In this document: positions 15,301-46,842 of the stretch, piece by piece
Layout: each line of letters starts with the position of its first letter
Numbering within the stretch: position 1 is the first letter of the stretch
DNA from: an uncultured Planctomycetia bacterium
GTDB lineage: Bacteria > Omnitrophota > Gorgyraeia > Pluralincolimonadales > Pluralincolimonadaceae
DNA length: 64,000 nucleotides
Direction: 5' to 3'
NCBI GenBank assembly: GCA_964650515.1
Contig: CAZYUB010000008.1
Location: 16,126 to 80,125, forward strand
Program-made: the position numbers and the translations under genes
Notes under the pieces: model-generated
Database searches by the model: none
What the model saw: only the letters and a program-made list of their open reading frames with translations
What the model was told of the DNA's origin: nothing

Positions 15301-16752
15301 TTAAGCCCTGTTGACTACGAATGTCCTCTTTAGCGAATCCTTAAGCCTGCCCTTCTTCAGGTCGCGCGCTATCGCGCTGACAAGAAGGCGCGGCATCACC
15401 GCGACAAGGGAGGCGACCTCCCCTAAAGACAGGAACCTGTTACTGAAAACGCCCTTCCAAAATACCCTGATAAAACGCTGCGGCGTGTAAAAGGAGAACT
15501 TGATGGTCCTGCCTATCTTCTTGAGCGCCGCGTGGCTGTAGGTATCCGAGTACAGTTCGCCCTTCTCGGTAATGTGGTAACCGGCCGTCTTCTCGGCCAG
15601 TTCCCTGAGCGGCGAGAACCTCTCTATCCTCAGCTTGTTGCACGATATGAAATCCAGCCCGATCTCTTTAGCGAACCTCGGGATATAGAGCATCTCTTCC
15701 TTGCTCTCCCCGATATTGCCGTAAATGAAATACCCGTTATAGAAGATCGGGTACTTCTTGAGCACTTTAAACGCCTTGCGGACCGTTGCCGAATCGAACC
15801 CCTTGTTCAACTGCGCAAGGATGCGGTCGTTCGGGGATTCTATCCCCATCAGCAGGGCCTTGAACCCAGCCTTGACCATCTTTTCGAGCAGGCGCGGATG
15901 CTTGTATATCTCTATACGCGCCTGGGCGATGAAACGCTTCTTTATCCCGCGCTCGATGATGCCGTCGCACAGTTTCTCCGCCCTTGAGGGATTCACAAAA
16001 AGGTCGTCATCGCTGAAGAGTATCACCTGGGCGGTTATGCCTTCGAGCTCTTCCAGGACAGAATCGACGCTTCGCGCCGAATAGGTCCTTTTCTGGCCCA
16101 GCGGGTTAAGGCTGAACGTACAGAATTTGCAGTTGTGAGGGCAACCCCTTGCGCTCAATACCGAATCGAAGGTCAGGCCCATCACTTCTATGCCATTGAT
16201 CGCGAGCTTGTATTTGTTCGCCCTCAATGCCCGGTCCGGGGAATCGATATCATTTACGTCGCGCAGCGGCCTGTTCTTGTTGTGGACCACGGCGCCGTTC
16301 TCCGCGTACGATATGCCGAGGATATCCTTCAGCGGGACCCCGTTGAGTATATCCTTTATCGTCTCCTCGCCCTCACCGCGGACTATTATGTTTATCTTTG
16401 GGCACAGCTTGAAAAGCTCATCCGCCATCTCGGTCGCCTTGTATCCCCCTACGACGAGGGTCTTTCCGGAAGGCATGCGGTTCAGCAGGTCGCATATCTC
16501 CTTGAACTGGCGGTCCCAGCCGATGCTGACGCAGATTATGTCGATCTCTTTCGATATGAAATCGAGCAGTTTTGCGGTGTCCGAAAGTTCCTTCTCATAC
16601 CTGAGGTCGAGCATGGAGATCCTGCCGACAAGGCCTTCGGCGCTTGTCGCGACGTATTCGAGGCCGGTCGGAGGAAAAAGCTTCATTACACTGGTGTTGT
16701 TGCTCTCAATGTAGGGATTCAGGAACAAGGCATGATCGTATTTCACCTGCAT
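15301..16752 (-). CDS. B12-binding-domain radical SAM enzyme (class B)
   Basis: N-terminal cobalamin-binding-like domain and CPHNCKFC radical-SAM cluster motif. Start moved to the internal Met (MQVKYDH) so that it abuts the upstream stop instead of overlapping it by 89 nt. Confidence 0.75.
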   Translation of the reverse strand: MQVKYDHALFLNPYIESNNTSVMKLFPPTGLEYVATSAEGLVGRISMLDLRYEKELSDTAKLLDFISKEIDIICVSIGWDRQFKEICDLLNRMPSGKTLVVGGYKATEMADELFKLCPKINIIVRGEGEETIKDILNGVPLKDILGISYAENGAVVHNKNRPLRDVNDIDSPDRALRANKYKLAINGIEVMGLTFDSVLSARGCPHNCKFCTFSLNPLGQKRTYSARSVDSVLEELEGITAQVILFSDDDLFVNPSRAEKLCDGIIERGIKKRFIAQARIEIYKHPRLLEKMVKAGFKALLMGIESPNDRILAQLNKGFDSATVRKAFKVLKKYPIFYNGYFIYGNIGESKEEMLYIPRFAKEIGLDFISCNKLRIERFSPLRELAEKTAGYHITEKGELYSDTYSHAALKKIGRTIKFSFYTPQRFIRVFWKGVFSNRFLSLGEVASLVAVMPRLLVSAIARDLKKGRLKDSLKRTFVVNRA

Positions 16753-37598: not shown

Positions 37599-37635
37599 GG
37601 TGAACGTATACTTCATTTTATGAACCTTTGTTCAT
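37599..37635 (-). promoter_or_regulatory. two tandem TetR-type operator palindromes (ATGAAC-N4-GTTCAT, plus a degenerate copy) just downstream of the tolC -10
   Basis: Sense: TATATT-tctaaa-ATGAACAAAGGTTCAT-aaa-ATGAAGTATACGTTCA. Confidence 0.6.
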
Positions 37636-37641
37636 TTTAGA

Positions 37642-38315: not shown

Positions 38316-38345
38316 TTCGCCTCATTTAGGATAATTTTCAATTAC

Positions 38346-38391
38346 TGAACATCCGTTCATAATATATACCATCCGGCCCCGCCCGTGTCAA
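38346..38391 (-). promoter_or_regulatory. tetR promoter (TTGACA-17-TATATA) with an overlapping operator copy ATGAACGGATGTTCAG
   Basis: Same TGAAC-N4-GTTCA palindrome as upstream of tolC, i.e. autoregulation. Confidence 0.6.
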
Positions 38392-38402
38392 GTTAATAAC
38401 CT

Positions 38403-39485
38403 TTAGGGATGGTGTTTCCTCAGGCGCAGCGCGACATTGACTAGGATTATGAGCGCAGGCACTTCTATCAGCGGGCCGATGACCGTCGCGAAGGCCTGGT
38501 TGGAGCTTATACCGAAGATGGCTACCGCGACCGCTATTGCCAGCTCAAAATCATTGCTGGCCGCGGTAAAAGACACGGCCGTGGTCTGGCCGTAGTTTAT
38601 TCGCATCTTCCTCGCGATGAAGAACGTCGCGAACCACATCACGAAGAAATATATCAACAGCGGTATCGCTATCCTTACCACGTCAAAAGGCATCTGTATT
38701 ATGTACTGCCCCTTCAGCGAGAACATGACGACAATAGTGAACAGCAGCGCAACGAGGGTCAACGGGCTTATCTTCGGGATAAAGACTTCCTCGAACCACT
38801 TCCTCCCTTTCAACCCGATGCCGCCGACGCGCGTAAGCGCTCCCGCAAGGAAAGGGATCCCCAGGTAGAACAGCACGGTCTTCGCCGCGTCTACCATCGA
38901 GATGCTGATATTTACGCCTTTCGCGAGTCCGAGCCATTTCAGCCCGAGCGTAATGAACAGGTATATATACGCGGCATAGAACAGGACCTGGAACAACGCG
39001 TTGAAGGCGACCAGCCCTATCGCGAACTCCCTGTCCCCTTCAGCGAGCTCGTTCCACACGATCACCATGGCGATACAGCGCGCAAGCCCGACAAGTATCA
39101 CGCCTATCATATATTCGGGGCGATCGCGCAGGAACGTTATCGCGAGGACGAACATCAACAGCGGGCCTATGACCCAATTCTGCACGAGGGAAAGCACCAG
39201 CAGTTTCGGCCTGCTGAATACCTTTCCCATCTCCTCGTATTTTACCTTGGCCAGCGGCGGGTACATCATGAGTATAAGCCCTATGGCTATCGGAATAGAG
39301 GTAGTGCCTACCTGCATGCCCGCGATGGCATCGGTGACGTCGGGAGCGAAATAGCCCAACGCTATTCCCGCAGCCATCGCGGCAAATATCAACGGCGTCA
39401 GGAGCTTATCCAGCAGGGATAATTCCCTCTTTATTTCAATGTCTTCATGTTTAGTATAAGGCATATATATAGTATGATCCGGCAA
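38403..39485 (-). CDS. arsenite efflux transporter, ACR3 family
   Basis: 10-TM BART-superfamily protein, collinear with ACR3. Confidence 0.8.
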
Positions 39486-40128
39486 TGATGAATATCGTGC
39501 CTGTGATCATCCTCATGTAATATTCTATGGAAGCCAGGCGCTTGAACCAACGGCCCAGGGATGCCACACCGAGCGATATAGCAAAAGCGAATATAAGGAC
39601 GGGCAATCCCGTGCCGATGCCGTAGACCAGCGGCAGTACGATGCCGTTTTTGCCGTTTATCGCCAAAGGAATGAGGCTTCCGAAAAACAGCGCTGCCGAG
39701 ACCGGGCAAAAGGCGAGAGCGAATACGATGCCCAGGAGAAATGCCCCGGGGATGCCCGCGCCGGCGAGCTTGTCCTGGTCTTTCTGCGAAAGGGAGAATC
39801 CCGGGACCCTGATCTTTATTATCTCCAACAGGACCAGCCCGGTGGCCACAAGCAGCGGTCCAAGCGCGCGGTTCATGTATTTCTGGAGGAACTGCGCTAC
39901 CTGCGGGACGCTCAACAACGAATTGACGAGTATGATCCCTAGTACGGCGTAGGAAACCATCCTGCCCGCCGTATACGCCGCGCCGGAGGCCAGGACCAGC
40001 GCAGGGCGGGATACCTTCTTGGCGATGAACGATATGGCCGCGACATTCGTGGCCAACGGGCACGGGCTTATAGAGGTCAATATGCCCAGCCATAACGCCG
40101 ACCCGATGCCCGCGAGCAACCCGGTCAT
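39451..40128 (-). CDS. DsbD/CcdA-like transmembrane thiol-disulfide transfer protein
   Basis: 6 TM helices; conserved Cys in TM1 and TM4 ([15 protein letters not shown]). Confidence 0.7.
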
Positions 40129-40520
40129 TGCGCCTCCTTCAACAGGGCCGACATTTCTTTTTTGACATAATCGATGAACTTCTGCCTGTTGCCGGAGTAC
40201 TCCCAGATCTTATCGAGGTTCTTCCATTTTATCTCTTTGCTGCCTTTTACCAATGACAACACGAGCGATTTGGTATAAAGCTGGTAGTCCTTAATATAAT
40301 GCCCGTTCTCCTTTTCATCCACATTGACCACTTTAAGGTCCGGCCCTATCGCTTCCTTTGAATATTGCTCCAGCTTATGGCATGTGGGGCAGCGCGCATT
40401 GCCGTGGAAATAATAGGCGACTACATGCGCGGCATCCGCATCTTCCGCCGCGCCCGCCGGCTCCGGAAATACCATGCTTATCGCGGCAAACGCCAGTATG
40501 GCTGTAAACAGTTTTCCCAA
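40125..40520 (-). CDS. secreted thioredoxin-fold protein (CPTC)
   Basis: Signal peptide; CPTCHKLE redox motif. Confidence 0.65.
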   Translation of the reverse strand: MGKLFTAILAFAAISMVFPEPAGAAEDADAAHVVAYYFHGNARCPTCHKLEQYSKEAIGPDLKVVNVDEKENGHYIKDYQLYTKSLVLSLVKGSKEIKWKNLDKIWEYSGNRQKFIDYVKKEMSALLKEAQ

Positions 40521-40530
40521 TCTCCCTCCT

Positions 40531-40764
40531 TTATTTTGATATTATACCCTTTATCTCTTCCCTGCTTAATACTTTCCCGGAGGATACCAGGGTGCCGTCT
40601 ACCGCGAGCGCCGGGGTCATCATCACCCCGTATCCCGTGATCTTATCGATATCGGTGACCTTCGATATCTCGGCGTCAAGGCCGAGCTCCTTTACCGCCG
40701 CCTCCGCGTTCGCCTTGAGCTGGTCGCATTTGAAGCAACCCATTCCTAATATCTCTATCTTCAT
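40531..40764 (-). CDS. small thioredoxin-like protein (redox-active disulfide protein 2 / MTH895-like)
   Basis: 77 aa; GMGCFKCDQ motif. Confidence 0.75.
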   Translation of the reverse strand: MKIEILGMGCFKCDQLKANAEAAVKELGLDAEISKVTDIDKITGYGVMMTPALAVDGTLVSSGKVLSREEIKGIISK

Positions 40765-40773
40765 CTCCCCCTC

Positions 40774-41520
40774 CTATTTGACCGCCCGCACACATATGCT
40801 GGCCACCGAATCATCGGCAGGATAGCCGGACTCTTTTTCCACGCTTACATCGCGGAATCCGGTCTTTTTTACCAAGGACAGGTATTCGTCCTTATTTATC
40901 GCGCCTGAAATGCATCCGACATACGCTTTGACGGATTCCTTTTTCTCCGGCGGAAGCTCTTTTATTAGGACCAGGTCGGAGACCATCATCCTTCCTCCCG
41001 GCTTTAATACCCTGAACGCCTCCCTGAACACGCTTTCCTTGTCGGGCGACAGGTTTATGACGCAGTTAGAGATGACCGCATCGATGCAACCGTCTTCGAC
41101 GGGCAGCTTCTCTATCTCGCCCAGCCTGAATTCGACATTTTTGTAGCCGCCTTTCGCGGCATTTCTCACGGCCTTCTCTATCATCTCCGGGGTCATATCC
41201 ACCCCGATTACCCGGCCGGCGGGGCCGACCCTGCGTGAAGCAAGGAAGGAATCGAAACCCGCCCCGCTTCCGAGGTCAAGGACGGTCTCCCCCTCCTCAA
41301 GTGACGTTATCGCTACGGGATTGCCGCATCCGAGCCCCAGGTTCGCGCCACCGGGAACGGCGTCCATTTCGGCATCGCTGTATCCTACGGACCTGCTAAT
41401 ATCCCGCGCGGCCTGCGCGCCGCCGGAACAACATGAAGATCCCTGACAGCATGAGCTTTCCGTGCGCGCTATCTCGGCGTACCCGTCCCTTACAATCTTC
41501 TTTATATTCTTCTTGTCCAT
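40774..41520 (-). CDS. arsM: arsenite S-adenosylmethionine methyltransferase
   Basis: SAM motif VLDLGSGAG plus N-terminal Cys pairs (CCQGSSCC) and C-terminal Cys, typical of ArsM. Confidence 0.85.
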   Translation of the reverse strand: MDKKNIKKIVRDGYAEIARTESSCCQGSSCCSGGAQAARDISRSVGYSDAEMDAVPGGANLGLGCGNPVAITSLEEGETVLDLGSGAGFDSFLASRRVGPAGRVIGVDMTPEMIEKAVRNAAKGGYKNVEFRLGEIEKLPVEDGCIDAVISNCVINLSPDKESVFREAFRVLKPGGRMMVSDLVLIKELPPEKKESVKAYVGCISGAINKDEYLSLVKKTGFRDVSVEKESGYPADDSVASICVRAVK

Positions 41521-41532
41521 AACGTTTCTCCC

Positions 41533-42657
41533 TTATTCCGCGATCAACCCGAACACGACACCGGATATCGTAGCCATTATCACGACCGACACCACATAGA
41601 CGGCCGTCTTCTTCGTGCCTATAACACCCCTGATTACAAGCATGCTCGGCAGGCTCAGGGAGGGTCCCGCCAGCAGCAGCGCAAGCGCCGGGCCTTTTCC
41701 CATACCCGAGGCCATGAGCCCCTGCACTATCGGCACCTCCGTCAATGTCGCGAAATACATGAACGCGCCTACGATCGAGGAGAAGAAATTCGCGAACAAC
41801 GAGTTCCCCCCGACGAGAGCTGCAACATACCTCGAAGGTATTATGCCTTCATGCCCTACCCGGCCGAGCAGGAATCCCGATATCAGGATACCGCCCAGCA
41901 AGAGCGGCAATATCTGCAACGCAAAAGCCCACGTCGCGGACACCCAGTCCTTGATCTCGTCTTTCTTGAACCAGCTGGCCAGCGCAGCAACCATAACCGC
42001 GAGAAAGAACCCGGTTATCCACCATCTCCCCGAGTTCGCGAAGACGAGCACCGCGATCATCGAGAAGAAGTAAACCGCGTTCTTCCAGAGCGGGCGCGGT
42101 TCCTTTATCACGCCCGGCTGTAACTCCCCCTTAGCATGGCGGGCATGCTCTTCCTTTATGAATATCAGGTGCATGATAAAACCTATAACTATACTGAAGA
42201 CGATCGCTCCTATCGCGCGCGCAAGGCCGATCTTCCATCCGAGGATGCGGGCGGTCAGTATTATCGCCAGCACATTGATGGCCGGCCCCGAATACAGGAA
42301 CGCTATCGCAGGCCCCAAACCGGCCCCTCGCCTGTATATTCCCGAGAAGAGCGGCAATATAGTGCACGAGCAAACCGCAAGTATAACGCCGGAGACCGAC
42401 GCAACGCCGTATGACAGCATCTTGTTCGCCTTTGCGCCGAAATACTTTATTACGGATGCCTGGTTGACGAATACCGCGATCGCGCCCGCTATGAAGAACG
42501 CCGGCACGAGGCACAGCAGCACGTGCTCCCGCGCATACCACTTCACCAGAGCGAGCGCTTCGAATATTGCGTTATCGAACCGCAGGTTCTCTATCGGCAT
42601 GTAAAAACAGCCGAGGAATATAGCAATTATATACACGAGTTTCTTCAATTCCTTCAT
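41533..42657 (-). CDS. arsP: organoarsenical efflux permease ArsP-like (DUF318 permease)
   Basis: Two-repeat permease carrying AVCSCTILPLF, which matches the ArsP TPFcSCSxxP signature. Confidence 0.7.
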   Translation of the reverse strand: MKELKKLVYIIAIFLGCFYMPIENLRFDNAIFEALALVKWYAREHVLLCLVPAFFIAGAIAVFVNQASVIKYFGAKANKMLSYGVASVSGVILAVCSCTILPLFSGIYRRGAGLGPAIAFLYSGPAINVLAIILTARILGWKIGLARAIGAIVFSIVIGFIMHLIFIKEEHARHAKGELQPGVIKEPRPLWKNAVYFFSMIAVLVFANSGRWWITGFFLAVMVAALASWFKKDEIKDWVSATWAFALQILPLLLGGILISGFLLGRVGHEGIIPSRYVAALVGGNSLFANFFSSIVGAFMYFATLTEVPIVQGLMASGMGKGPALALLLAGPSLSLPSMLVIRGVIGTKKTAVYVVSVVIMATISGVVFGLIAE

Positions 42658-42959
42658 TTCCTTCCTTTCCTAATGATCTCGCAGCATCCGCCTTCTATCC
42701 GTATGGCCTTGATATTTACCAGTCCGTCGGCTATCTTCTCCTGCGCGGAAGTCAGGATCCTCGAGAATGTCGGCCGTGATATCTTCATGAGTTTCGCGGC
42801 GTCGACCTGCTTTAATCCTTCGAGGCAAGCCAGGCGCATCGCCTCGAATTCATCGAGGGTCAAGGAAACCGCGTCCACCTTGTTCATCGGCTTGCAGAGG
42901 GGCTTGAAACACCTCTCCCCGGGGGCACATTTTATCCATCTTGTTATTTTCGGCCTCAA
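42654..42959 (-). CDS. DUF134 (UPF0251) predicted DNA-binding protein with Cys-rich termini; candidate regulator of the ars operon
   Basis: TTG start with a GGAGG RBS 6 nt upstream; CxxxxxC...C N-terminus, sigma-region-4-like HTH (LTLDEFEAMRLACLEGLKQVDAAKLMKISRPTFSRI), C-terminal GGCCE. Confidence 0.65.
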   Translation of the reverse strand: MRPKITRWIKCAPGERCFKPLCKPMNKVDAVSLTLDEFEAMRLACLEGLKQVDAAKLMKISRPTFSRILTSAQEKIADGLVNIKAIRIEGGCCEIIRKGRK

Positions 42960-42972
42960 GGCGATCCTCCAT

Positions 42973-43021
42973 TATGAACATATGTCCATAACAGTATAGC
43001 ATACATGCGGCGGTTGTCAAT
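42973..43021 (-). promoter_or_regulatory. ars-operon promoter (TTGACA-16-TATACT) followed by a 20-bp near-perfect palindrome TTATGGACATATGTTCATAA
   Basis: Palindrome (18/20) lies between the -10 and the GGAGG RBS of the DUF134 gene. Confidence 0.55.
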
Positions 43022-43026
43022 ACCGG

Positions 43027-43680
43027 TTATTTTTTCGCGCCGGCTTTGATCAGCAGGTGGACTATCTCGTTGTATTTTTTTTCTTTTGCGAGGCTGTATG
43101 CAGTCGAGCCGTCGATGACCTTGGCGTCGACACGGGCATCTTTTGCTAGGAGGGCTTTTACCACATCGATGTAGCCGTTGTTGGATGCTGCTATTAAGGC
43201 GGTGACGCCGTTATTCGCGGTCGCATTCACGTCGGCGCCCTTCTCGAGGAGCGCCTCCACTATCTTGGTATAACCATACTGCGAGGCCCATATCATGGCG
43301 GTAGTCCCGTCGTCGTTGGCTTTAGCGTCTACCTCCGCCCCCTTCTCCAGCAGCGCCTCGACAACATCGAGGTAACCTCTCTGGCATGCCTGCATAAGGG
43401 AGGTGACGCCGTTATCGGTCTTCGCGTTCACGTCGGCGCCTTTCTCCAGCAGCAGTTTCACGACCTCGAGATGGCCCTGTTCGGAGGCATACTGCAGCGC
43501 GGTGGCGTTGTAGGTGGTCTTCCCGTTAACGTCCACGCCTTTTGCAAGCATGGAGCGGACTGCGGATACATCGCCTTTCCAGGCGGCCCTTATAAGGTCT
43601 TCGCAGGAACTGTCAGCGCAAAGACCGGGGTATGCCAGGCAAATTAACGCGATCGCTAAAGCAAGGACGTGAGGCCTCAC
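43027..43680 (-). CDS. secreted ankyrin-repeat protein (5 repeats)
   Basis: Signal peptide; repeated G-TALxxAxxxGHxxVVxxLLxxGADVNA units. Confidence 0.85.
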   Translation of the reverse strand: MRPHVLALAIALICLAYPGLCADSSCEDLIRAAWKGDVSAVRSMLAKGVDVNGKTTYNATALQYASEQGHLEVVKLLLEKGADVNAKTDNGVTSLMQACQRGYLDVVEALLEKGAEVDAKANDDGTTAMIWASQYGYTKIVEALLEKGADVNATANNGVTALIAASNNGYIDVVKALLAKDARVDAKVIDGSTAYSLAKEKKYNEIVHLLIKAGAKK

Positions 43681-43692
43681 CGTATCTCCGGG

Positions 43693-46600
43693 TCAGAACT
43701 TATACCTGACATCAGCCCAGCCCGTATGCGCAGTGAAGTCCTCCTTGTATTCGAAATCATAGTTCGTCTCTAACACCCAGTTGTTATTCGCTATTAGGGT
43801 CACCTTGGCGCCGGCGTTCAGCGAGTTCTGCGCGGGATCAAAGCCGTTGGTAGCGAACGAGCCGCCTCCGCCCGAGAATGTCGAGGTCGTCTCCTGCCTG
43901 TCTCCGATAAAGTCATAAAGCCATTTCGCGTGGATCTCGGGTATTATCGTCCCCGTCTCCGTCTTGAACGGGCGCTCGAGCTTCATGCCGAGGCCGGACT
44001 GCAGGAGGTCGTAATTCTGGCTGTTGACGTGCAGGTTGAGCGCGCCCGCGTTCTTCTCCGTGTAGCCCTCAAGATGGAGCCGTTCGTACTGCAACGACGC
44101 CATGGGAGTGATGCCGAATTCGCCGGATTTGAACGTGTATCCTCCGTCCAGCAGCACGGAATACTGCTGGCCGTCATAATCAGAATTCGCAGTCCTCATT
44201 ATAGTGCCGACCGCTATATGCCTCGAGCTGTCATATTTATTATAGGCAAACGAGAAAGCGCCGTTCAGGTAATACGGGTTCTCCGCGTCCGCGTAACCGG
44301 CATAAAGCGTGCCCTGGTAGCTGTCTATGTCCGTCTTGCCGCTGTTATCCTTCGAATTGATGCCGCTCTGCGCGTAACCGCCGCTGAGGCCCATGCGGAC
44401 CCTGTTATTGAATGCCGGGATGTCCCCGCCGATGGCCGTGCCCCAGACGGTAGCGCGGTAACCGTTACTCGAGCCGCGCGGCTCCTGGCGAAGGTATTCA
44501 CCGAAGCCCTGGCCCCAAGCCTCAAAACCCTGCAGACCTTCGCATCCTGCCGACACGCCGGTTTCTCCGTCGCGCGCTCTTGCGAAGAGGCCCGTAAGCC
44601 TGTCGGTTACTGTACCTATAAACTGCCCTAATGACAGGTTGCTTGAGGCGATCACGCCGCCGTCCACGACCGGGATAAGAGTGTCCAGGGATGAGCCCAC
44701 TTCCGCATTGTTCAACCCTTCGAGCGCGTTCAACACGTCCGCCATGTCATCGGTCGGGTCAGATATATTGTCAAGCACTGCGCCTACAGCGGCAGTGTTG
44801 GAGTTCGTGGCGTCACCCGCAAAACCCTGTCCCGGGCCTGAACGGTTTACCGTAAGGATAAGGTCGCCGCCGACACTCGAGCCTATGAGAGTATATCTCG
44901 AATTGCTTGATGTTATCGTAGCAGGCACATTCACGCCGGCGCCTCCCGCTCCGTCTATGATTTTCAAGGTAGCATTATTCGGCAGATATTCGGTTATAGT
45001 GACATTGACCGCGCTTGCGGCGGAGACAACGGCATCGGCAGCGGATACGATACTGCCGAAGCTCGAAACGGAAGCCGCGTTCAACCTCAAGGTTGAGCCC
45101 GCCGCCTGCGTATAGACGCCGTTAAAAGTCAATGTAGTCGACCCGATATCGAGGGTGGCATTGTTCGTTAACGCCCCCGTACCGACGGCGCTGGCGTTGC
45201 TTGCCCTCAACGTACCCGCATTGATCGTCGTAGTCCCGGTATATGTGTTCGCGCCGCTGAAGATAAGGGTGCCTGTCCCCTCTTTCGTGAACGCCGTCGC
45301 AGCGGTACCGTCTGCGATGACTCCGCTGTATGTAGTGGAGCTGTCGTTGCCGCCCGCAACCAGCGTGCATGCACCGGCGCGGTTTATGACATTGCCTGCG
45401 CCGGAAAGCGAGCCTATAGTCTCGTTCTTGCCATTGAGGTCAAATTCCGCTCCCGCCGCGATATTAATGGCGCTGGCATCCGGTATGACCCCGGAGGCGC
45501 CGAGAGTAAATTTGCCTTCGTTGATGTTAGTCGCTCCGGTATAATCGTCCCCTGTCATGTAAAGCAGGAGTTCTCCCGCTCCGCTCTTATTTACGTCGCC
45601 ATTCCCGGTGATCTTGCCGGTCAGGTTGTTCACGATAAGAAAATCACCCGCGCCGGTGAATGTTATGTCGTATCCTGCGGCGCCGGTATTGATGTTGCGG
45701 TAGATGAGCATGCTGCCTGCCGCATCCGATACCCCGATAGTGCTGTCGGCAGTAAGCGTTATGGTGCCTGAATAGGTGGACATTCCGGCAGAGCTGTTGA
45801 AGAGCGCTCCTTCACCGGCGGTGCCGGTGCCGGCTATCGAGAGCGGTTCGTCTTCGCCGGCGGTGAAAAGGTCGTGCCCGTTAAGGTCCATGGAACCGCC
45901 CGAATTTATAGTAGTCCCCGAGGTCTGGTCGCCGAGTGCGGAATCATCCCCAAGCTTCACCGTTCCGGCGTTTATCGTAGTTGTGCCGGTATAGGTATTG
46001 ACGCCTGATATCGTAGTCGTGCCGGTCCCGTTATGCTCTACGCTCATCGCGCCGGATATTACAGGGCTGAAAGTAAGCGCCGCGCTCGTGTGGTTGAAAA
46101 CCAGCTTTGCGGTACCTGCGCCTGCGGCGACTTCAGCTGCGGTCAGAGTACCGGCCGCCGCGCCGTTGCCTATATTGACGGTACCTACAGAACCTGCGGC
46201 ACTGGCCACGTTAACGGTCCCGGCCCCCCCATTGACATTGACGGTGGCGCTGTCGGCAACGGTCAATGTGCCCGTGCCGTTAAGCCCTACGTCGATATCG
46301 TTGTTCGTCACATATGTAGAACCTGTGCCCGTGACGGTCAGGACGCCCACCGAATCCGCGCTCGTGCTACCTATATACGTCTTTTCGTTCGATACGGTAA
46401 AATCTCCGCCGTTCGAGACGGTCAGCGATCCGTTGGTGTTATCGCCTATGACAACGCCCCAGGTGTTAGTCCAGTTCGATCCTGAGCCGATGTTCAGGAC
46501 ACCCGTAGTCGCACCATCGAACTTGGTCCAGCTCGTGCAGCCGCCGACATAATTGGTCAGTGTCACGTCATAGCTGTTTAGGTCCAATGTGGTTTCGAAA

Positions 46601-46842
46601 CCGAGGGATGTGACGTAACCGGTCAGGTCTATCGTGCCGGAAGCCGCGCTTTCGTTGAATTCGATGGTGCTCGTCGCGCCGTGGCTATTGACGTCATCGA
46701 TAGCCTGGCTGAAAGATCCGGCGCCGTTAGGATCATAGTTGGTCACAGTAAAGGTATCGGCGCATGCAGTTGGCGCAAATGCAAAGATGAGAAATAATAT
46801 CGTGAGGGGTATTACCGAAATATTCTTGTCGGCCTTTATCAT
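43693..46842 (-). CDS. autotransporter (type Va) with a long G/T/A-rich beta-helical passenger and C-terminal 12-strand barrel
   Basis: Signal peptide; numerous autotransporter-associated beta-strand repeats (GTGT.., NGG...); C-terminal barrel ending WADVRYKF. Confidence 0.8.
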   Translation of the reverse strand: MIKADKNISVIPLTILFLIFAFAPTACADTFTVTNYDPNGAGSFSQAIDDVNSHGATSTIEFNESAASGTIDLTGYVTSLGFETTLDLNSYDVTLTNYVGGCTSWTKFDGATTGVLNIGSGSNWTNTWGVVIGDNTNGSLTVSNGGDFTVSNEKTYIGSTSADSVGVLTVTGTGSTYVTNNDIDVGLNGTGTLTVADSATVNVNGGAGTVNVASAAGSVGTVNIGNGAAAGTLTAAEVAAGAGTAKLVFNHTSAALTFSPVISGAMSVEHNGTGTTTISGVNTYTGTTTINAGTVKLGDDSALGDQTSGTTINSGGSMDLNGHDLFTAGEDEPLSIAGTGTAGEGALFNSSAGMSTYSGTITLTADSTIGVSDAAGSMLIYRNINTGAAGYDITFTGAGDFLIVNNLTGKITGNGDVNKSGAGELLLYMTGDDYTGATNINEGKFTLGASGVIPDASAINIAAGAEFDLNGKNETIGSLSGAGNVINRAGACTLVAGGNDSSTTYSGVIADGTAATAFTKEGTGTLIFSGANTYTGTTTINAGTLRASNASAVGTGALTNNATLDIGSTTLTFNGVYTQAAGSTLRLNAASVSSFGSIVSAADAVVSAASAVNVTITEYLPNNATLKIIDGAGGAGVNVPATITSSNSRYTLIGSSVGGDLILTVNRSGPGQGFAGDATNSNTAAVGAVLDNISDPTDDMADVLNALEGLNNAEVGSSLDTLIPVVDGGVIASSNLSLGQFIGTVTDRLTGLFARARDGETGVSAGCEGLQGFEAWGQGFGEYLRQEPRGSSNGYRATVWGTAIGGDIPAFNNRVRMGLSGGYAQSGINSKDNSGKTDIDSYQGTLYAGYADAENPYYLNGAFSFAYNKYDSSRHIAVGTIMRTANSDYDGQQYSVLLDGGYTFKSGEFGITPMASLQYERLHLEGYTEKNAGALNLHVNSQNYDLLQSGLGMKLERPFKTETGTIIPEIHAKWLYDFIGDRQETTSTFSGGGGSFATNGFDPAQNSLNAGAKVTLIANNNWVLETNYDFEYKEDFTAHTGWADVRYKF

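Follow-up and report, generated by a model that had tools for sequence, protein, structure and literature searches.

A short DUF134 protein as candidate arsenic-responsive autorepressor of ars operons in Candidatus Omnitrophota

The first gene of an ars operon in a 64-kb stretch of contig CAZYUB010000008.1 from an uncultured Omnitrophota bacterium (64,000 nucleotides, hereafter the window) encodes a 101-residue helix-turn-helix (HTH) protein of the DUF134/UPF0251 family, and we propose, at a probability of roughly 0.6, that this protein is an autoregulated arsenic-responsive repressor of the operon it heads. To our knowledge, prokaryotic ars operons have ArsR/SmtB proteins as their regulators, with ArsD as a secondary repressor. 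A sequence-only reading of the same DNA had already suggested a cysteine-containing, arsenic-linked DUF134 repressor acting at a palindrome, and at the level of sequence comparison this suggestion gains support from gene linkage, operator conservation, cysteines particular to one clade, covariation of protein and operator, and the rarity of ArsR genes in these loci. From these observations we infer that DUF134 binds DNA, represses and senses arsenic, and likewise that it acts as a dimer, that it represses rather than activates, and which ligand and which cysteines take part. The operon and its genes are as follows.

43020-38403, minus strand: ars operon, DUF134-arsP-like permease-arsM-arsE-arsF-arsG-acr3, with promoter and palindrome, from open reading frames (ORFs), Pfam and NCBIfam
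42959-42654, minus strand: DUF134/UPF0251 HTH protein, 101 residues, TTG start (PF02001, E=5.5e-21)
42657-41533, minus strand: ArsP_1-family permease, putatively for trivalent (methyl)arsenical efflux (PF03773, 257 bits)
41520-40774, minus strand: ArsM, As(III) S-adenosylmethionine methyltransferase (NF008823, 352.8 bits against a cut-off of 263)
40764-40531, minus strand: ArsE-family thioredoxin-like protein (Thioredoxin_3, MTH895/ArsE, CxxC; TIGR00412, 102.5 bits against 62)
40520-40125, minus strand: ArsF-family secreted protein with signal peptide and CPTC (NF040494, 84.6 bits against 60)
40128-39451, minus strand: ArsG-family membrane protein with DsbD_2 fold (NF040495, 281 bits against 200)
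39485-38403, minus strand: ACR3 arsenite efflux transporter, the operon's final gene (TIGR00832, 445 bits against 283)

All seven genes are co-directional with junctions that overlap or are very short, the stop codon of DUF134 and the start of the permease gene sharing ATGA, and by Pfam, NCBIfam and ORFs the ACR3 pump, ArsM and the ArsP_1 permease stand within a single co-directional unit, as expected of an ars operon. The gene order, cysteine motifs, promoter and palindrome described in the sequence-only reading were all recovered, on the minus strand. The nearest relatives of the window's DUF134 protein are from Candidatus Omnitrophota, and one related locus (L007) carries an ars operon nearly identical to that of the window.

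Co-occurrence of DUF134 with ars genes in other genomes had been named in the sequence-only reading as a check on its proposal, and it is the pattern seen. Scanning the GTDB species, each represented by a single genome, gave 80 loci, in 73 of which (L007-L079) the DUF134 protein is 61–92% identical to that of the window; these are nearly all from Ca. Omnitrophota, plus one Syntrophaceae and one Auribacterota metagenome-assembled genome (MAG). Ars genes lie directly 3′ of DUF134 on the same strand in 72 of the 73 species-level loci, often with a 4-nt overlap, and at the remaining locus (L058) the contig stops 350 nt past the DUF134 gene. The genes that follow form varying subsets of ArsP_1, ArsM, ArsE, ArsF, ArsG and ACR3 of two types. 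ArsP_1 orthologues (65–97% identity) are found next to DUF134 in most loci, ArsEFG are kept together in most related operons, and the smallest operons consist of DUF134 and acr3 only (L031, L052, L061, L076 and L169), including that of the complete genome of Velamenicoccus archaeovorus LiM (L052). The genes around the DUF134-ars operons change from locus to locus, and the conserved unit is therefore the regulator together with its ars genes. At seven distant DUF134 genes from other phyla (L080-L086, 52–58% identity) ars neighbours are absent.

Two loci (L049 and L059) appeared to be exceptions to the linkage. Both encode a second type of ArsP_1 protein of 320 residues, about 24% identical to the 375–390-residue type seen in the window and carrying a TPFCSCSS motif; motifs of the TPFCSCS type are presumably an ArsP feature. 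Genes for this second permease type after DUF134 are located as follows.

L038, 10464-11426: 320-residue ArsP_1 gene
L049, 10479-11438: 320-residue ArsP_1 gene

In L038 the gene is followed by ACR3 and by an arsenate reductase of the low-molecular-weight protein tyrosine phosphatase (LMW-PTP) type, and in L049 by a gene for a thioredoxin-reductase-like flavoprotein, with one for a CitMHS/ArsB-like permease farther along.

Several other arrangements were observed. Some MAGs hold two separate DUF134-ars operons (L012 and L056; L009 and L010; L045 and L047). In one lineage bearing the NCBI label Verrucomicrobia (L003-L006) a DGC-domain protein (PF08859) is encoded between arsE and arsF (e.g. L003 12734-13141), a 54-residue ORF lies between the arsP-like permease gene and arsM, and a gene for an ArsB/CitMHS-like permease stands directly 5′ of DUF134, itself preceded by a transposase in L003 and L004. 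A MIP-family channel gene at L168 (26-1001) begins within a divergent DUF134 gene of the CC type, whose product shows 51% identity and has an EAGCC terminus; As(III) can pass through some MIP aquaglyceroporins. For two distant CC-type relatives (P0122 and P0131) the contigs are too short to hold gene neighbours. Immediately 5′ of the ars promoter in the window (43027-46842, minus strand) are the genes of a secreted ankyrin-repeat protein of 217 residues, common only to the window and L007, and of a 1049-residue autotransporter that has PATR repeats and, at its C-terminus, a beta-domain; both are outside the conserved DUF134-ars unit.

The region directly upstream of the DUF134 gene contains the following signals.

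43020-43015, minus strand: −35 box TTGACA, read from the sequence, with TTGnCA kept at the same distance in 73 anchored upstream regions
42998-42993, minus strand: −10 box TATACT, with extended TG at 43001-43000 and a 16-nt spacer
42991-42972, minus strand: 20-bp palindrome TTATGGACATATGTTCATAA, 18/20 self-complementary, a putative operator over the expected transcription start
42970-42966, minus strand: ribosome-binding site (RBS) GGAGG, read from the sequence

Of the 12 positions of the σ70 consensus the promoter matches 11, and the extended TG is present. The palindrome, whose place between a consensus promoter and the RBS had been pointed out from the sequence and is confirmed here, begins 1 nt past the −10 box, and the TTG start codon of DUF134 follows at 42959, 3′ of GGAGG. 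In the 73 upstream regions of orthologous loci, anchored on the palindrome, information is high only at the −35 box, at the extended −10 box (consensus TnTGnTAAAnT) and across a 22-bp palindrome, and it peaks in the palindrome. The palindrome's consensus is TTATGAACATATGTTCATAA for the clade and GTTATGAACATATGTTCATAAC over the 73 orthologous loci; TTATGAAC-N4-GTTCATAA is conserved directly past the −10 box across the clade, and the flanks are not conserved. TTATG-N10-CATAA is found exactly 5′ of 66 of the 73 DUF134 orthologues and as a near match at the other seven. Spacing is likewise regular: counted from the first base of the −35 box, the palindrome starts 30–31 nt downstream in 54 of 76 loci, and its end lies 12–16 nt from the start codon. 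Within the window, TTATGAAC-N4-GTTCATAA with at most three mismatches occurs three times against 0.09 expected, a number reached in none of 100 shuffles. Because the palindrome covers the transcription start of a promoter that is already strong, its placement is of the repressor type.

The protein scores 75.4 bits against a PF02001 gathering score of 27 (residues 2-92) and has the core DUF134 motifs R2-P3, F18-x-P20, E37/E39/A40/R42/L43, S61-R62-x-T64 and G90-G91, the core columns being those without variation, or conserved to 90% or more, across 124 aligned sequences, among them representatives at 41–60% identity. With 53.8 bits against a cut-off of 115 for the NCBIfam equivalog PRK04217, it is a member of the family other than that equivalog. 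In an AlphaFold model (predicted local distance difference test, pLDDT, 81.6) a three-helix HTH (helices 35-46, 51-57 and 62-81) has short strands on its N- and C-terminal sides, and these bear the cysteines. The best match in both sequence and structure is the operator-bound DNA-binding domain of Bacillus subtilis DeoR (7bhy; profile E=6e-8, 42% identity, root-mean-square deviation 0.7 Å over 40 residues), and σ70 region 4 also matches. In a Pfam search at E<=0.01 DUF134 hit neither HTH_5 nor HTH_20, and among the PDB structural matches listed (the best 50) there is no ArsR/SmtB entry, DeoR-type and σ70-region-4-type HTHs being found instead. The modelled fold is thus a σ70 region 4/DeoR-type HTH, other than the ArsR/SmtB fold. 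The protein falls outside the SorC/DeoR family itself, in that the HTH alone aligns (38–40 residues) and its 101 residues include no effector domain.

An HTH core structurally closest to σ70 region 4 and to PhyR sigma-like domains would also suit a palindrome-binding protein that activates transcription or serves as a sigma-like specificity factor. DUF134, however, has neither sigma region 2 nor sigma region 3, and a site past the −10 box, over the transcription start of an 11/12-consensus promoter, is in the classic position of a repressor site; we regard activation as very improbable.

Protein and operator vary together at one position. Residue 63, which starts the recognition helix (SR-P-TFSR), is proline in 65 sequences, with operators built of ATGAAC half-sites, and serine in 11, of which eight have ATGCAC and one has ATGCAT. 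On a neighbour-joining tree Ser63 occurs in three or more separate lineages, and two Ser63 relatives found later (P0121 and P0131) likewise have ATGCAC in their operators. We take this covariation, with counts made without phylogenetic correction, as supportive rather than decisive. In fen_1320 both DUF134 copies have Ser63, and their operators show ATGCAC in one or both arms.

An iterated ArsR/SmtB profile was run over all ORFs of at least 60 residues in the window and in 86 loci. It found no ArsR in the 64-kb window, the profile having been seeded with a few E. coli ArsR sequences, so that very divergent ArsR-like proteins could escape it; inspection of the gene list gave no ArsR- or ArsD-like candidate among the window's small genes. 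The sequence-only reading had noted both regulators as absent from the operon. ArsR-family ORFs turned up in four of the 86 loci, three of standard length (L030, L073 and L074) and one an atypical ORF of 195 residues (L060). That of L074 is a genuine HTH_5 protein (E=8e-15), and a palindrome of the DUF134 type, TTATGACCATATGTTCATAT (15482-15501), lies about 40 nt upstream of its gene and about 2.7 kb downstream of the DUF134-ars operon, which hints at cross-talk between the two types of regulator.

The sole transcription factor near the window's ars operon besides DUF134 is a TetR protein heading the next operon, and operator-like palindromes are found there too.

38343-38362, minus strand: second operator-like palindrome TTATGAACGGATGTTCAGTA, directly past TTGACA-N17-TATATA and upstream of the TetR gene
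38315-37701, minus strand: TetR gene
37618-37637, minus strand: third operator-like palindrome AAATGAACAAAGGTTCATAA, past TTGACA-N17-TATATT and upstream of the OEP/HlyD/MFS efflux genes
37560-33838, minus strand: OEP/HlyD/MFS efflux genes

Both additional sites have the form ATGAAC-N4-GTTCA, come directly after a σ70 promoter close to consensus and, with the ars operator, make three sites within 5.4 kb. The arrangement of TetR, efflux genes and palindromes is the same in L007, and L015 encodes a 47%-identical TetR homologue with ATGAAT-ACAA-ATTCAT past its −10 box; TetR homologues were found at these two related loci only. The sites at 38343 and 37618 may belong to TetR and look like the DUF134 site, or the efflux pump and the ars operon may be regulated together. 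The ars palindrome was itself considered as a TetR operator and rejected on the count of TetR homologues, present in only two related loci.

More generally, the ars palindrome could be the site of some other regulator, for example the adjacent TetR or a distant ArsR, with DUF134 in an accessory role, for instance as arsenic chaperone or nucleoid-type protein. Such an arrangement would accommodate the two similar palindromes at the TetR and efflux promoters, the L015 TetR homologue with its ATGAAT-N4-ATTCAT site past the −10 box, and the few related clusters that contain an ArsR gene (L030, L073 and L074). It would not easily account for a palindrome kept in nearly all loci when TetR homologues are restricted to L007 and L015 and ArsR is missing from most, nor for related palindromes 5′ of DUF134 genes whose phyla and genomic surroundings are unrelated. 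Moreover, DUF134 has a bona fide DNA-binding HTH whose recognition-helix residue covaries with the half-site, and we consider control by another regulator quite improbable.

The relatives outside the arsenic clade were collected in a metagenome scan with an 18-sequence DUF134 alignment as query (L087-L166). Upstream of 55 of the 75 metagenome non-ars DUF134 genes, 35–50 nt before the start codon, is a TTATGAGCATATGCTCATAA-like palindrome with a score of at least 12/16, which about 4% of random 150-nt windows reach. By this comparison the operator type is a family-wide trait, extending beyond the arsenic clade. At E<=0.001 the PF02001 family has 3087 representatives, its members coming from anaerobic bacteria and archaea. 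Directly 3′ of the non-ars DUF134 genes (L087-L166 and L080-L086) there is usually a gene for a NifX-like protein (PF02579), often followed by Mrp/NUBPL P-loop ATPases, ZIP transporters or TrmO-like genes. In the non-ars proteins Cys is found at positions 5/6 and the C-terminal tail is long, taking the form of a CxxC...CxxC zinc ribbon, an RG-rich stretch, RCCRxHD or a NifX-like domain fused to the protein.

The cysteines of the arsenic clade are those of the two clusters reported in the sequence-only reading, CAPGERCFKPLC near the N-terminus (residues 11-22 of the window's protein) and GGCCE near the C-terminus (residues 90-94), both of which are present. Among 76 clade members, Cys92 and Cys93 are kept in all 76, Cys11 and Cys17 in 74 each, Cys22 in 71 and Cys45 in 53, and C11, C17, C22, C92 and C93 are missing from all seven of the non-ars DUF134 proteins compared (L080-L086).

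The main rival to arsenic sensing turns on these same residues. According to it, DUF134 autoregulates at the palindrome without sensing arsenic, its cysteines hold zinc or an Fe-S cluster or form a thiol redox switch, and the operon answers general stress, whether of thiols, redox state or metals. A chemistry of cysteines or metals belongs to the family at large, beyond arsenic, because non-ars DUF134 proteins also carry cysteines (C5/C6, zinc ribbons, RCCRxHD) and their genes adjoin others related to metals or Fe-S clusters (NifX-like PF02579, Mrp/NUBPL ATPase, ZIP). Yet the combination of C11/C17/C22 with C92-C93 is found only in the clade that is ars-linked in 72 of 73 loci, and the smallest regulons, a single ACR3 gene, fit general redox stress poorly. 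Known ArsR proteins, moreover, bind As(III) by three-thiolate sites that include a vicinal Cys pair. We judge this explanation unlikely; the other rivals are weaker.

Several observations count against an arsenic-responsive DUF134 repressor and temper our estimate of it. The clade's cysteines could be structural ligands of zinc or of an Fe-S cluster, and AlphaFold confidence is only 56–73 at the ends of the protein that bear them. Two Ser63 proteins (L028 and L058) go with operators that have no CAC half-site, and three Pro63 proteins (L046, L051 and L061) with operators that have one CAC arm. The two further palindromes around the window's TetR gene, together with the TetR site in L015, mean that another HTH protein might recognise such sites here. 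Finally, the ArsR search of this genome spans 64 kb, and an ArsR may be encoded elsewhere.

If DUF134 is the arsenic-responsive autorepressor that we favour, it would bind as a dimer through its σ70-region-4/DeoR-type HTH to two ATGAAC half-sites with centres 10 bp apart. Since the palindrome begins 1–2 nt past the −10 box and spans the transcription start, a dimer seated there would prevent initiation. Arsenicals in the trivalent state, likely As(III) and perhaps MAs(III) (methylated trivalent arsenic) made by the operon's own ArsM, would be bound by the thiolates of Cys11, Cys17 and Cys22 and of the vicinal pair Cys92-Cys93; the basis for this step is the exclusive ars linkage and the cysteine pattern. 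DUF134 would then leave the DNA, and the permease, ArsM, ArsEFG and ACR3 would be de-repressed.

A wider generalisation is quite possible, and we offer it tentatively. All DUF134/UPF0251 proteins may be autoregulated cysteine-based repressors responding to metals or metalloids, with an operator of the type TTATGnnCATATGnnCATAA over the transcription start. The Omnitrophota clade would then be a second, non-homologous kind of ars repressor besides ArsR, one that senses arsenite or methylarsenite, with a three-thiolate (S3) site formed by an N-terminal Cys triad and a C-terminal Cys-Cys, and residue 63 and position 6 of the half-site would constitute a specificity code.

A full-text literature search for DUF134, UPF0251, PF02001 or COG1342 found no study of function, DUF134 occurring as a whole word in just two papers and there in passing, within the library searched, in keeping with the earlier view that the function is new to the family. 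Three papers turned up on Omnitrophota, arsenic and arsM, by their abstracts community surveys. Were the proposal correct, it would give the DUF134/UPF0251 family, with its thousands of members, a first function, a DNA motif and a ligand hypothesis, and would account for the control of arsenic methylation and efflux in Omnitrophota, a widespread phylum of groundwater and sediment. It would also provide a new arsenic-sensor scaffold for biosensors and an annotation for ars islands in candidate phyla. A family-wide operator further permits regulon prediction for the non-ars DUF134 genes beside NifX-like and Mrp genes.

The operon can be compared with known systems, beginning with its effector genes. 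The sequence-only reading had seen a periplasmic thiol-disulfide relay inserted in the ars operon; the genes are there, but the insertion is not an unusual one, since they are the known ArsE/ArsF/ArsG module. The window's ArsE, ArsF and ArsG each score above the NCBIfam cut-offs and their genes are contiguous (40764-39451). According to PMC9144182, the ArsEFG module is known in ars operons and serves in the detoxification of aromatic arsenicals (Chen, Zhang and Rosen 2019, Environ Sci Technol 53:6182). Its described role is the reduction of nitro-aromatic arsenicals and the efflux of the amino-aromatic products, and the module in the window, assigned by family membership, may have that role in these anaerobic Omnitrophota. 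A CcdA-like thiol-disulfide relay role of ArsEFG is possible, judging from the fold. The module studied by Chen, Zhang and Rosen is reportedly that of Shewanella.

Within its own family (PF02001, COG1342) the protein resembles the typical DUF134/UPF0251 member in its near-invariant FKP, LTLDEFEA-RL, SRPTF-RI and IEGG motifs and in the type of its upstream palindrome, TTATGnnCATATGnnCATAA. Unlike typical members, those of the ars clade are short (about 100 residues), have C11/C17/C22 and a GGCC terminus, go with ATGAAC or ATGCAC half-sites, and are linked to ars genes. With B. subtilis DeoR of the SorC family (7bhy, 8r7y) DUF134 has in common the HTH of a dimeric repressor whose structure is solved on its operator; it is without the C-terminal sugar-phosphate-binding effector domain of about 250 residues found in DeoR, the HTH alone being common to both.

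The closest parallel in organisation is with the ArsR/SmtB regulators of E. coli R773, Acidithiobacillus ferrooxidans and Corynebacterium glutamicum. As in these systems, the regulator is small (about 100–120 residues), is encoded first in the ars operon, has an imperfect palindromic operator that overlaps its own promoter, with autoregulation proposed, and carries conserved terminal cysteines, which in DUF134 include a vicinal pair. In the ArsR proteins of C. glutamicum and A. ferrooxidans the terminal cysteines form the S3 site for As(III). DUF134 differs from ArsR/SmtB in being non-homologous, with a three-helix HTH and short beta strands in place of a winged helix, and in an unrelated operator sequence. 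The functional assignment proposed here for DUF134 is new within the literature searched, and the system, as read from its sequences, would be an autoregulated ars operon that responds to metalloids, in itself a known kind of system, with a regulator from a non-homologous family to which no function had been assigned.

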